Assembly (NCBI RefSeq): GCF_022379125.1
Contig: NC_061519.1
Location: 24,047,101-24,111,100, forward strand
Direction: 5' to 3'
DNA from: Scophthalmus maximus
Lineage: Eukaryota
Length of the DNA stretch: 64,000 nt
Within the stretch, counting starts at the first letter, position 1; each line of letters begins with the position of its first letter. This document shows positions 7,895 through 41,663 of this stretch, piece by piece. A program made the position numbers and the translations under genes. The notes below the pieces were generated by a model. The model was given only the letters and a program-made list of their open reading frames with translations, ran no database searches and had not been told where the DNA came from.

Positions 7895-8098
7895 TTAAAG
7901 GGGCAGTAATCGTTCTAAAGCAAAACACGCATTGTAAAAAAATCTACGGATATTTCCTCGCGGTCCACTAGATGTCGGTTCTGTATGTCTCCCATAACGG
8001 GAGGTCGCAGGTTTGCGGCACCCGACCAGAGCACGAAAAATCACAGCGACAATGAGGGGAAACAAGCTTTCTCCATAATCGCTTACTGGCCCCTTTAA
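7895..8098. mobile_element. MITE family A copy 1: TTAA-flanked terminal inverted repeats AAAGGGGCAGT ... ACTGGCCCCTTTAA
   Basis: ttaaaggggcagtaatcg ... cttactggcccctttaa, in mettl17 intron 4. The same termini occur at 35592 and 41276. Confidence 0.6.
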
Positions 8099-8225
8099 TA
8101 GCCGCAAGGTACATTTGCAACTGATGTTTTAGTTCACATTGATTGTTGAGTTTAGGAACTTTGGTCCTGTTTCGTGTCTGTGGTGTAGACAAGTTTAGAC
8201 GGGGAACTGTCTGTCTGTGTTTCAG

Positions 8226-8307
8226 GTACGATGAGGAGTTCGGCGTCGTGTACATGGCGGCTCGCCTGGCCGGCGGCTACGCAGCAATGAGGAGAGCTCT
8301 CAATGAG
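8226..8307 (+). CDS. mettl17: mettl17 exon 5
   Basis: Translation KYDEEFGVVYMAARLAGGYAAMRRALNE; human has [21 protein letters not shown]. Confidence 0.9.
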
Positions 8308-8442
8308 GTATGAGCAAGTGTTTAATAAAAATGTTTTACACCTAGAAAAATGCCCAAAAAATGTTCTGATTTCTGAGGATTACGACGACTTAATTTTTTT
8401 TATGGGTGAAATAAGTTTTTCATTTTTTCCCTGTCATTCTAG

Positions 8443-8516
8443 ATCAAGAAGAGGGATCCCTCCTTTGCCCCACAGTCTCTTCTGGATTTCGGTTCAGGGC
8501 TGGGAACAGTTGTCTG
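8443..8516 (+). CDS. mettl17: mettl17 exon 6 (SAM-binding motif I)
   Basis: Translation IKKRDPSFAPQSLLDFGSGLGTVV; human has [24 protein letters not shown]. Confidence 0.9.
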
Positions 8517-8649
8517 GTTGGTTTACAGCACCAATGCAACACAAAGATAATTTTTGATGTAATTTAAAAGACTGTACATTCACTCTCTATCTTTCTCTCT
8601 CATTGTCTCTCTCTCTGTCTCTCTCCCTTTCTCTCTCTCTCTCCGGCAG

Positions 8650-8744
8650 GGCGTCACACTCGTACTGGGCCGACTCTTTGAAGGAGATGGTTTGTGTCGA
8701 CAGCTCGGGGCCGATGAACACTCTGGCAGAACGACTTCTCAAAG
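8650..8744 (+). CDS. mettl17: mettl17 exon 7
   Basis: Translation WASHSYWADSLKEMVCVDSSGPMNTLAERLLK; human has [31 protein letters not shown]. Confidence 0.9.
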
Positions 8745-8873
8745 GTTCATGTGCACAAAAACACGATATTTAATTTAGATAGGTCGCAGTTTTCTTAAGT
8801 TTTCTTTTCTTTTTTTCTTTTGTCAAATAGCTCATCAGACAATCTAAGTATGTTTTTGTGTTTGGCTGCGCAG

Positions 8874-8944
8874 GCGCCGATGAAAAGGCTCAACCTCACA
8901 TCAAACAAGTCTATTTCAGACAGTTCCTCCCGGTCTCTCCTAAG
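8874..8944 (+). CDS. mettl17: mettl17 exon 8
   Basis: Translation GADEKAQPHIKQVYFRQFLPVSPK; donor AAG|GTAAGA. Confidence 0.9.
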
Positions 8945-9099
8945 GTAAGACCCTCCTCTATTTGTAAATTCAGCTGCAGAGAAGCACATTCTGTTTTCAG
9001 ATGTCGGGGAATAACAGTTTCTTCAAATATATATTTATAATCCATCCTTTCAATTTTGAGTTTCAAAAAAAAGATTAAAACTCGGATTATTGTCGTATA

Positions 9100-9480
9100 T
9101 GCAAGAACCTTTCTTTCATTCTTTATTTATTTTATTTACTCTCTATATTTCTTTCTTTTACTTACTTTCTTTCTTTTTCTCTTCTTCTTACTTTCATTCT
9201 TTCTATCTTTCTTTCTTTCTTTCTTTCTATCTTTCTTCCTACGTTTCTGTCTTTTTCTGACTCACATTCTTTCTTCCTATCCTCCTATCTTTCTTTTTTC
9301 TAGCTTTCTTTCTTCCTATCTTTCTATCTTTTTCTGACTTACAATCTTTTGTTCTATCTTCCTTCCTATCTTTCTATCTTTTTCTTTCTTAGTTTCTTTC
9401 TATCCTTTCCTTACTTTCTTTCTTTCTTTCTTTATTTTTCATACTTTCTTTTTCTTACTTTCTTTCTTTCTTTCTTTTTT
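9100..9480. repeat. (CTTT)n / TTTC-rich low-complexity tract in mettl17 intron 8
   Basis: About 380 bp of ctttctttctttc units; it generates the spurious ORFs 9056..9337 and 9349..9546. Confidence 0.9.
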
Positions 9481-9590
9481 TGTCTTGAAACATCAATAGT
9501 TCGTCTACAAACACAATCACCCAGATGCATCTTAAGTAATATTTAGCGGAAGGATGAGGAGACGTGATACTGCTGCGTTTCTACTTTCAG

Positions 9591-39203: not shown

Positions 39204-39719
39204 GTTTCAGAGTCTCGTGTGGTCGAGTGTCCAAGCATCCAGATAACCACCATCTCCCCGGAAGACGACGCAGCACCCACCATTTCCAGCTACTGGGACA
39301 TGGGTGGCGGCGGCGGTGGGTGGGACCGAGAACGCCTCTACCTCCCCCTGCTGGACCCCTTTTCCTACCGTGAAAGATGCCCGGGCTCCCTCAGCCCCAG
39401 CCCCGCCTCCAGCCCCTCCTCCCGCGGCTGGCTCAGCCCCGCCTCCAGCTGCGACTCCCTGCTGGTCGAGGAGGACGAGCTCAACGAGGCCGCCATCAAT
39501 TTGGGGCTCTCGCCGTCGTCAAGGCCCACTTCCCCCGGGGGTAAAAAGCGCAGAAACTCCCCTCTGGCCTCCCCCTGCACCTCGCGGAGGGGCAGTTACT
39601 CAGAGGAACTGCAGGGTTACAACCTGGAGGGCGGAGACTCCAACCCTCAGTCGCAAGCTCCGCCCGGCAGCTGTGAGCTCAGCATCCCGCAGAAAACCAG
39701 GAAGACGTCATTGGAGCAG
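39204..39719 (+). CDS. nfatc4: nfatc4 coding exon 3 (regulatory domain: PxIxIT site, SP repeats, NLS)
   Basis: Translation VSESRVVECPSIQITTISPEDDAAPTISSYWDMGGGGGGWDRERLYLPLLDPFSYRERCPGSLSPSPASSPSSRGWLSPASSCDSLLVEEDELNEAAINLGLSPSSRPTSPGGKKRRNSPLASPCTSRRGSYSEELQGYNLEGGDSNPQSQAPPGSCELSIPQKTRKTSLEQ; donor CAG|GTAAAG. Confidence 0.88.
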
Positions 39720-39793
39720 GTAAAGACGCCCGTTTGGTTTTTGTGGCGAAGTATGTCAATTGCGGCGGTGAACGTCACTGTTTTGTCGTCCAG

Positions 39794-39969
39794 CTGTCGT
39801 CCAGGGAGGTGGATCAGGAGCAGGCTCCGGGCCACAGCTCCCCCTGCCCGCCGCCAGAGAGCCAGCAGACCAGGAGAGAGCCCCCTCCGCTGGGCATGGA
39901 CTACCTCTCTGTGCCCCCTGCCCTGGCCTGGGGCCGGACCCGGGCCAGTGCCCACAGCCCTCTGTTCAG
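39794..39969 (+). CDS. nfatc4: nfatc4 coding exon 4 (follows a 74-nt intron)
   Basis: Translation LSSREVDQEQAPGHSSPCPPPESQQTRREPPPLGMDYLSVPPALAWGRTRASAHSPLF; human has MDYLAVPSPLAWSKARIGGHSPIFR; donor AG|GTGAGG. Confidence 0.85.
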
Positions 39970-40235
39970 GTGAGGACACGCGTAGGCAACATCTACTCTA
40001 CTGGTACGACAAAGATTTATATTCATTCAACCAAATGATAAGACAGATTTCAAAAGCTGATCCTTTCACTGACAGCGTGCTGTGTCACGCACCTGTCATG
40101 TTTGCATGTGTAAATTACATGTAAATCTCATTTATTCCTCCACGAAATAGTTATTCACATGCGTCTGCTGTGCCTCTCAGCACTCACCGAGTAAAAAAAA
40201 AACCCTCGGTCTAATAATTGTCCAACCCGACGCAG

Positions 40236-40398
40236 GTCCAACGCGCTGCCGCCACTCGACTGGCCGCTGCCGTCCCAGTTCGACCAGTACGAGCTGCGCA
40301 TCGACGTGCAGCCGCGCCCACACCACAGAGCCCACTACGAGACCGAGGGCAGCAGAGGAGCCGTCAAGGCTGCGCCGGCGGGACATCCTGTCGTCAAG
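40236..40398 (+). CDS. nfatc4: nfatc4 coding exon 5 (start of the Rel homology region)
   Basis: Translation [55 protein letters not shown]; donor AAG|GTGAAG. Confidence 0.92.
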
Positions 40399-40589
40399 GT
40401 GAAGCGCAAACCTTGCAGTAACACACGGGACAGAGAAACAAAATTACATTCACTTTAATTTCAAATCAAGCTTACTTATAAATAATTCTGGAACCAAAAG
40501 TCTTCACACGGAGGTTGCGGCTCACTGCTGTTGACCTCCTCATGCCGGTCGGATCTTAAACCTCTGACACTGAGTCTCTCTCCTCACAG

Positions 40590-40690
40590 CTGTGTGGATA
40601 CACGGAGAGGAAACCGCTCTCTCTGCAGGTTTTCGTTGGAACAGCTGACGACAGATCCATCCGGCCGCATCCTTTCTATCAGATACACAG
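40590..40690 (+). CDS. nfatc4: nfatc4 coding exon 6
   Basis: Translation [33 protein letters not shown]; donor AG|GTACTG. Confidence 0.9.
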
Positions 40691-41099
40691 GTACTGAATC
40701 GCTTTTCAGCAAGTCAAACTTCTTTCCGAGTGTCCCTCTGTCGAGACACAACATAGTGTATATCAACGGGACGCATCGTGTGATCACTGTGGCTGCATCT
40801 ACCACCAGCTGCTTTTTGTGCTGTTTGAGTTGGATGCTTTTTTTGCAGCAGTCATTGTCAGTGTCAGAAGAAAAGCATCAAGAGTTTGTTAGATTCTTCT
40901 TCTCATCTTGTATCTTGGGGCATCTGTGAGATATTCTGTGAGCATCAACAGGATGTAATTAGTTTGTATTTGAAAATATTCAACGGATCTGGACAGTTCC
41001 GTTTCCAATGTGGATGTAATTTGGCTTTGGAGGAATTTGGATGTCTCTTTACTGGATTCAATCAAATGTAGCAACAATAAATAAAATAGCAGAATAGCA

Positions 41100-41170
41100 G
41101 TGCATATCACCCGGGCGCGAACATGGTCACCTTGAGCAGCAGGCCCTGGTTCGACTCCCGAGTGGTTGGA
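41100..41170. repeat. tRNA-derived SINE-like fragment
   Basis: gcaggccctggttcgactcccgagtggttgg contains a B-box GGTTCGAnTCC. Confidence 0.35.
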
Positions 41171-41275
41171 CCCTTAACCGCGTGTCTCTCACCTTGTTTC
41201 CTGTCTCTCCTTCAAAATTTCACAATACACATACATAAGTTTAAGGGCTGCAGCTATTGATTAAGTTAAAGGGGC

Positions 41276-41663
41276 AGTAAGCGATTTTTAATCCTGATAC
41301 ACTTCTGGTAAAATTCAGCAAATATTTCCTTGCGGTCAACTAGCTGTCCGTTCTGTGTGTGCGCTGAAAAAAGATCCATGTTTTTTCGGCTCAGTCCTGG
41401 CTCTGTAAATCGAAAACAAAAGAAATGGGCACAGTTTGTAAATATCACTTGCACCACGCCTTAAGGGACTAGCTGGTGCTAGAGACAACCTTTCTCCAAA
41501 ATAGCTCACTGCCCCTTTAAGAGACGTGCTGGCGTCAACCGCTACGGTTTTAGCGTGTCCGAGTCCCATACCCAAGGTCGCGGGTTTGAACCCCAATCAC
41601 TGCGTTCAGAAAATCAACATTGAACAATCTTTCTCCAAAATAGCTTAATGCCCCTTTGATTAA
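41276..41663. mobile_element. MITE family A copy 3: a duplicated 3' terminus enclosing a tRNA-like module (41521-41625)
   Basis: ttaaaggggcagtaagcgatt ... ctttctccaaaatagctcactgcccctttaa, then ggtcgcgggtttgaacccc (B-box-like), then a second ctttctccaaaatagcttaatgcccctttga. Confidence 0.5.

Follow-up and report, generated by a model that had tools for sequence, protein, structure and literature searches.

Annotation of the window (the whole 64-kb stretch of DNA that was analysed) showed an NFAT-family gene with exon 1 near 33430-33600 and exon 2 at 39219-39750, followed by the Rel-homology exons. Three complete copies of a short repeat (7895-8098, 35592-35769, and 41266-41520) and one 5'-truncated copy (41521-41659) were found in the window, all on the + strand. 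Copy 2 was located in intron 1 and copy 3 in intron 2 of the NFAT-family gene, and copy 1 lay ~25 kb upstream of the gene, separated from it by a GPCR gene and an SDR39U1-like gene in opposite orientation. A previous sequence-only reading had placed all three copies within introns of nfatc4, which was correct for copies 2 and 3 but not for copy 1.

The repeat family is real. The three complete copies and the stretch 41521-41659 have terminal inverted repeats (TIRs) of ~23-28 bp in common, in the order TTAA|AGGGGCAGTRAGCGATT..., and 21-25 of 32 positions matched between the 23-28 nt arms. The exact 13-mer TTAAAGGGGCAGT was found at 7895 (+), 35592 (+), 35757-35769 (-), 41266 (+), and 41508-41520 (-), and when up to 2 mismatches were allowed there were 10 matches against 1.4 expected. 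A profile HMM of the TIR detected seven termini with E values of 1e-4 to 8e-9 and had no match in the rest of the 64 kb. All seven termini have AGGGG at the tip, giving the ends 5'-AGGGG...CCCCT-3', and the termini of the family are written as AGGGGCAGT. The flanking tetranucleotide was exactly TTAA in seven of eight cases, comprising both flanks of each of the three complete copies (six) and the 5' flank of a copy outside the window (contig L012, described below); the flank of the truncated copy was TTGA. These exact termini and TTAA flanks bear out the MITE family with terminal inverted repeats that had been proposed, and the copies described were genuine, but their boundaries required correction: copy 3 starts at 41266 and not 41276, copy 2 ends at 35769 and not 35770, and copy 3 has its outer 3' end at 41659 (CCCCT|TTGA), which leaves 41660-41663 as flank. 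Weaker terminus matches at 14824, 29742, and 48453 had neither a partner end nor a similar core, and were left out of the copy count.

The elements measured 178-255 nt and contained accidental open frames only. BLASTN and MAFFT showed that the copies are homologous over ~95 nt at the 5' end (75-78%) and ~40 nt at the 3' end (85-92%). Identity between copies was 72-80% (K2P 0.24-0.30), and judging from this divergence the copies are old fossils. Five copies were recovered in total: L012 and, within the window, four copies or fragments distributed over three sites. They fell into two subfamilies that have the same ends but dissimilar cores. Copy 1 belongs to subfamily A together with fragment 3b of copy 3, and subfamily B consists of copy 2, element 3a of copy 3, and L012.

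Copy 1 (204 nt with the TTAA of either end counted in) has the 5' TIR TTAAAGGGGCAGTAATCG and the 3' end CGCTTACTGGCCCCTTTAA, the latter with one extra base (ACTGGCCCCTTTAA). Copy 2 is 178 nt, likewise including both TTAA sequences. An internal conserved block had been claimed for all three copies, and it was present in copies 2 and 3 (tcagcaaatattt...ctgtgtgtgtgcgc) but not in copy 1, which has tctacggatattt...ctgtatgtctccc followed by a core unlike that of copies 2 and 3. The subfamily-A core motif of copy 1, TCCCATAACGGGAGGTCGCAGGTTTG, was located at 7990-8015 (+) and is the homologue of a stretch in copy 3 that had been described as tRNA-like.

Copy 3 consists of two parts. Element 3a (41266-41520, 255 nt) is complete, and its 13-nt termini and the TTAA at either side are all perfect; its core is of subfamily B, but its 3' subterminal sequence CTTTCTCCAAAATAGC is subfamily-A-like, and it contains an inverted repeat (I2) with 23-nt arms of 91% identity. 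Fragment 3b (41521-41659) lies directly against the right-hand TTAA of 3a; its end is CCCCT|TTGA, with the decayed terminus TCAAAGGGGCATT. The duplication of the 3' end that had been noticed here was confirmed as a 34-nt repeat at 91% identity, with the first unit at 41485-41518 (+) and the second, which is the 3' TIR of 3b, at 41624-41657 (+). The ~100 bp between the two 3' ends had been read as an insert private to copy 3, and this part of the reading failed, because copy 1 has a homologous stretch at the same relative position. The supposed insert together with the second 3' end was collinear with positions 82-202 of copy 1 (66% identity, z=12), and the core motif by itself (7990-8015 against 41564-41588) was identical at 21 of 26 positions, a score equalled in 2 of 1000 shuffles. 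This collinearity with the body of copy 1 argues for a second copy-1-type element, of which 3b is the 5'-truncated 3' portion (~70%), and not for foreign DNA. On the evidence of these alignments, copy 3 is a complete and better-preserved element, 3a, with an adjoining, more decayed and truncated subfamily-A element, 3b. Most probably, 3b would be the older of the two, and the TTAA at which 3a integrated would have lain at the margin of 3b or within it.

A full nested insertion, with 3a lying within an older element whose 5' end is at 41241, was considered and not adopted, since the TIR profile HMM did not report 41241. The sole hint of such nesting was that this position carries a weak TIR-like sequence (TTAA followed by GGGCTGCAGCTATTG) that ranked about third among ~740 background TTAA sites. 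No subfamily-A 5' half was found upstream of 3a, and the upstream 100 nt was unlike a MITE 5' half.

It is also conceivable, though unlikely, that the interval 41266-41659 does not represent two independent insertions: it could be one composite unit that moved as a whole, or the 3' end could have been duplicated in tandem on the spot, with an indel afterwards. The outer ends form a 28-nt inverted repeat at 82% (I1), TTAA stands on one side of the interval and TTGA on the other, and tandem or composite MITEs are known from coral CMITEs (PMC2872659) and KolobokP (PMC9587614). A longer direct repeat, 41461-41520 against 41517-41659 (13/16 plus 31/34 nt), is possible as well, but its additional 16-nt part (41461-41476 against 41517-41532, 13/16) was marginal (p=0.03) and is compatible with either nested-insertion or tandem-duplication histories. 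No second example of a composite unit was found, and the terminus and flank of 3b are more decayed than those of 3a, which suggests unequal ages and favours two separate elements.

The sequence-only reading had taken copy 3 for a chimera of MITE and SINE, formed when a Pol III module of tRNA origin with a B box entered between the duplicated 3' ends, an explanation that is now very improbable. The T-arm/B-box-like 19-mer GGTCGCGGGTTTGAACCCC was located at 41576-41594 (+) within the subfamily-A core and holds the palindrome GGGTTTGAACCC. For similarity to tRNA, 20 E. coli tRNAs served as references in local alignments, and shuffles and random window tiles gave the background. The best similarities to these bacterial reference tRNAs were 16/19 between the 19-mer and the T arm of tRNA-His (shuffle p=0.057) and 11/11 between the homologous stretch of copy 1 and tRNA-Lys (GGTCGCAGGTT, p=0.053), but random tiles of the window outscored the tRNA-like stretch against the same tRNAs. 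The sequence GGTTTGAACCC differs from the B-box consensus by one mismatch, which falls at a CpG position; matches to this consensus with up to one mismatch numbered 8 in the window against 9.3 expected, which is chance frequency. With ARAGORN, no tRNA was reported in the tRNA-like stretch at thresholds of 100% and 90%, and lowering the threshold to 80% yielded noise alone; the Rfam tRNA model gave no match at the gathering score or at E<=10 in the slices 41515-41630 and 7940-8065 (116-126 nt). Inspection upstream of the B-box-like stretch showed no match to an A box (TRGCNNAGTGG), and a SINE tail and a variable-length duplication were also absent. A tRNA or SINE identity of 41521-41625 was rejected, with all tests negative or at background level. 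The stretch is common to copy 1 at the same relative position, which makes it family core and not an insert, and the tRNA-like 19-mer is, as far as these comparisons go, an ordinary part of the subfamily-A core and not a tRNA. There is likewise very little likelihood that the subfamily-A core (copy 1 and fragment 3b) descends from a captured tRNA or SINE-head fragment extending from the anticodon loop to the T arm; if this were true, a Kolobok-type MITE would once have carried a Pol III promoter remnant and could have dispersed it by cut-and-paste transposition.

Outside the MITE, the intron that holds copy 3 contained a genuine SINE-like fragment with an exact B-box consensus at 41100-41225, ~110 bp upstream.

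At least one further dispersed copy was found beyond the window. The Logan contig L012, from an independent fish sequencing run, carried a non-orthologous subfamily-B copy with ~80% identity, which was reached through a search with the peptide of an accidental ORF in copy 2 (one match). The accidental-ORF peptide of copy 1 gave no candidates, and a profile built from both peptides gave nothing beyond L012. The 21-nt TIR pattern had zero matches in the metagenome, viral, and prokaryote-genome collections. A two-termini pattern matched a single contig from a eukaryotic metagenome (L004), in which the 13-nt ends are identical but the core is unrelated, and a literature search with the terminal sequence matched primers only. 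Three related fish NFAT-family loci (L001-L003) were obtained via a protein search with exon 2; their exons aligned at 76-83%, and their introns were unalignable and without a member of the family.

For the superfamily, T2-MITEs have TTAA as their target site and the motif AGGRR at the terminus, and the TIR of a Xenopus Kolobok subfamily is AGGGGAACTATCATGA (PMC6004289). Kolobok elements produce a TTAA target-site duplication and have the termini 5'-RR and YY-3', unlike piggyBac (PMC9587614), and Kolobok MITEs with TTAA flanks are on record in a percomorph fish, the sablefish (PMC8327909). The TTAA flanks and 5'-AGGGG...CCCCT-3' termini of the present family match this published signature, which would place it in the Kolobok/T2 type, an assignment drawn from the signature of ends and target only. 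Features of Kolobok/T2 elements that were found here are the TTAA target, the 5'-RR...YY-3' ends, the AGGRR tip, TIRs, a small non-coding size, and dispersed copies. The TTAA would represent the target-site duplication and not part of the repeat; a duplication read as TA or as 3 bp would need invariant extra flank bases. Taken together, the copies are probably fossils of a non-autonomous cut-and-paste DNA transposon (MITE) of the Kolobok superfamily, T2-MITE type, with copy 3 made up of two adjoining elements.

PIF/Harbinger (Tourist-like) elements make a 3-bp TWA target-site duplication. The affiliation proposed before was piggyBac-like or PIF-like, and a MITE of either type in place of Kolobok is hardly credible. 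The flanks here are the palindrome TTAA, and an identical 3-bp direct repeat would need each flank to have one further, invariant T or A, so that a 3-bp duplication cannot be fitted. PiggyBac likewise integrates at TTAA, but its TIRs begin with CC[C/T]T beside the TTAA (PMC2872659), against the Kolobok/T2 signature of an AGGGG start on both strands in this family.

No transposase ORF was found within the 64-kb window. Judging from published Kolobok elements and T2-MITEs, the TIRs would have been bound by a Kolobok DDE transposase with its gene elsewhere in the genome; this enzyme would have excised the element and integrated it at a TTAA, with duplication of the tetranucleotide. Given their divergence, the present copies are very probably immobile.

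The MITE family described here, from a teleost and with two or more subfamilies, is of a well-known kind of transposon, and the finding is an ordinary one that matters little beyond annotation. What is gained is that the boundaries are now correct and that the family is assigned to a superfamily (Kolobok/T2, and neither piggyBac nor PIF); the NFAT-family introns also lose a spurious tRNA/Pol III call. At the copy 3 locus, MITEs have piled up at one TTAA-rich spot, a small illustration of how such accumulation can mimic chimeric elements.

Among known systems, the closest are the T2-MITEs and non-autonomous Kolobok elements (Xenopus Xmix and T2 subfamilies, Kolobok-N, and the sablefish MITE), with which the family has in common the TTAA flanks, the AGGRR tip of the TIR, and the 5'-RR...YY-3' ends. 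They are also alike in being 180-400 nt long and non-coding, with common ends and different cores, and in being often intronic (PMC6004289, PMC9587614, PMC8327909), but in the searches made here, outside the repeat libraries Dfam, Repbase, and FishTEDB, the interior of the present family was not linked to any described family. The piggyBac-derived MITEs of coral (CMITEs) resemble it in their TTAA flanks, small size, and occasional tandem or composite arrangements (PMC2872659), but have CC[C/T]T... ends, against AGGGG.../...CCCCT here. With tRNA-derived SINEs the family has in common a 19-nt stretch resembling a tRNA T arm or B box, at a level close to background; unlike those SINEs it has no cloverleaf, A box, or tail, and TIRs with TTAA lie on either side of the stretch.

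The three copies of a TTAA-flanked MITE family proposed by the sequence-only reading were present in the window, and their shared 13-mer terminus TTAAAGGGGCAGT was found exactly at five places: 7895 (+), 35592 (+), 35757-35769 (-), 41266 (+), and 41508-41520 (-). Allowing up to 2 mismatches gave 10 matches in the window against 1.4 expected. The corrected boundaries, all on the + strand, were 7895-8098 for copy 1 (with a one-base insertion at its 3' end), 35592-35769 for copy 2, 41266-41520 for copy 3a, and 41521-41659 for the adjoining fragment 3b, the last two together forming copy 3. 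The terminal inverted repeat (TIR) was about 23-28 nt long and read AGGGGCAGTRAGCGATTNTGRAG directly after TTAA. A profile HMM from seven termini regained exactly those seven (E 1e-4 to 8e-9) with no other window match below E=0.6, and BLASTN showed 72-75% inter-copy identity and no further family members in the 64-kb window. The K2P distances between copies were 0.24-0.30, and the insertions are therefore old. Two solitary terminus-like 13-mers, TTAAAGGGGCTGC at 29742-29754 (-) and TCAAAGGGGCATT at 14824-14836 (+), had neither a partner end nor core similarity; either chance or extreme decay of a former copy probably accounts for them.

The stretch between the duplicated 3' ends of copy 3, previously taken for a private tRNA-like insert, proved to be homologous to the core of copy 1. 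Together with the second 3' end (41521-41659), it formed a collinear gapped alignment (66% identity, 12 SD over shuffles) with positions 82-202 of copy 1. With the termini left out, the core motif TCCCATAACGGGAGGTCGCAGGTTTG (7990-8015) matched TCCCAT-ACCCAAGGTCGCGGGTTTG (41564-41588), a match equalled by 2 of 1000 dinucleotide shuffles. Copies 2 and 3a carried another core at this position, and the family therefore comprised two subfamilies with common ends, A (copy 1 and fragment 3b) and B (copies 2, 3a, and one on Logan contig L012). Judged from these alignments, copy 3 consists of two elements, a complete one and, immediately after it, one of subfamily A that has lost its 5' part. An older 3b, with 3a inserted later at its edge, fits the sequence because the 3b terminus (TCAAAGGGGCATT, flank TTGA) was more decayed than 3a, with its perfect ends and TTAA flanks. 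No subfamily-A 5' half was found upstream of 3a, where a weak TIR-like site was located at 41241. The segments TTAAGGGACTAGCTGG (41461-41476) and TTAAGAGACGTGCTGG (41517-41532), each upstream of one repeated 3' end in copy 3, were identical at 13/16 positions (marginal p=0.03), and copy 3 may contain a direct repeat (41461-41520 vs 41517-41659). The 41241 site and the 13/16 repeat allow more than one exact history of 3a and 3b.

The tRNA T-arm/Pol III B-box reading of this module was not supported, since ARAGORN, Rfam, the B-box count, and the tRNA alignments were all negative or at background. ARAGORN showed no tRNA in the window at the 100% or 90% thresholds and 27 noise-level calls at 80%, with 0 on the + strand at the module. 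Rfam produced no match at the gathering score and no tRNA at E<=10 in 41100-41800, 41515-41630, or 7940-8065. The B-box consensus GGTTCGANNCC with <=1 mismatch had 8 matches in the window, where 9.3 were expected, and the module's match was part of a palindrome, GGGTTTGAACCC. In local alignments to 20 annotated E. coli (bacterial) tRNAs, the best result was 16/19 to the T arm for the module (shuffle p=0.057; equalled by 1.8% of window tiles) and an 11-mer for copy 1 (p=0.053), while unrelated window segments scored higher (26-29 vs 22-23). A MITE/SINE chimera with a Pol III module was rejected on these tests and on the homology of the insert to copy 1; strictly, a tRNA as the distant ancestor of the subfamily-A core is conceivable but improbable. 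A SINE-like fragment just upstream of copy 3 (41100-41225, +) had a perfect B-box consensus, GGTTCGACTCC, at positions 41148-41158 and, after it, a body of the '...ccgcgtgtctctcaccttgtttcctgtctctcc' type; it matched real tRNA T arms over 15 nt (p=0.01), better than the flagged module. If a Pol III-derived element is present in this intron, it is this fragment.

All three copies had been placed in nfatc4 introns; the intronic position, in an NFAT-family gene, held for copies 2 and 3. The NFAT-family gene (+ strand) had exon 1 at ~33430-33600, exon 2, where SP and PxIxIT-like motifs occur, at 39219-39750, and exons of the Rel-homology region starting at ~44880, so copies 2 and 3 lie in introns 1 and 2, respectively, in sense orientation. 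Copy 1, close to a WWE-domain exon, lay ~25 kb upstream; the last exon of an SDR39U1-like gene (- strand) and a rhodopsin-type GPCR gene intervened. An open frame of 194 aa (6194-6778, -), separated from copy 1 by ~1.1 kb and without a Pfam match, may be what remains of a decayed transposable element. At 32314-32884 both strands have long open frames whose peptides are periodic (…SSSLSLSSPSPLLLPLSPLAPS… / …EEREREEEGARG…), which points to a GC-rich minisatellite shortly before exon 1, followed by long CA/GT microsatellites (~33700-34200). Another MITE family of the TTAA+AGG type was represented in intron 1 by one terminus, TTAAAGGACCAGTGTGAAGGATTTAGTGG... (~37300-37519, -); its body of ~220 nt was unrelated, and a partner end was not evident.

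Outside the window, collections of metagenomes, viruses, and prokaryote genomes contained no match to the 21-nt TIR pattern. The two-termini pattern had one, a MITE of 194 nt between TTAA flanks, sharing the 13-nt ends (TTAAAGGGGCAGT...ACTGCCCCTTTAA), at 305-498 of eukaryotic metagenome contig Ga0126342_10123224, inside an intron of a PDZ-domain gene. Its interior was AT-rich and unrelated, only the terminal motif being common with the fish family; this single case suggests a motif more widespread than the family. Copy 2 was open in one frame by chance, and its peptide, searched against protein representatives, had a single match (P0055, E=1.5e-4) leading to L012 (from another sequencing run, SRR26131391). 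Positions 2793-2943 of L012 contained a subfamily-B copy with TTAA before it, an identity of ~80% to copies 2 and 3a, and a 7-nt deletion within the 5' TIR (TTAAAGGGGC-GATTCTAAAGC); the contig end cut this copy off. L012 had no other similarity to the window, and the family is therefore dispersed beyond it. No members were found in three related fish NFAT-family loci (29 kb), whose introns were unalignable with the window, so that the TTAA duplication was deduced from filled sites.

For a PIF 3-bp or Tc1/mariner TA duplication, every copy would have to carry extra, unchanging bases in its flanks. T2-family MITEs have TTAA target sites and a terminal AGGRR motif (PMC6004289). Kolobok elements have TTAA duplications and, "unlike piggyBac", 5'-RR and YY-3' termini (PMC9587614), and a percomorph fish is already known to carry TTAA-flanked Kolobok MITEs (PMC8327909). 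Every terminus here showed TTAA followed by AGGGG, the Kolobok/T2 signature and not that of piggyBac, and the suggested piggyBac-like or PIF-like affinity was not supported. By its termini, the family is a real but ordinary set of old Kolobok/T2-type MITEs, for which we infer a Kolobok transposase as the mover. The window MITEs resemble Kolobok in their TTAA flanks and AGGGG termini (5'-RR / YY-3'), whereas piggyBac TIRs end in a CC[C/T]T motif (PMC2872659) in place of AGGGG next to TTAA.
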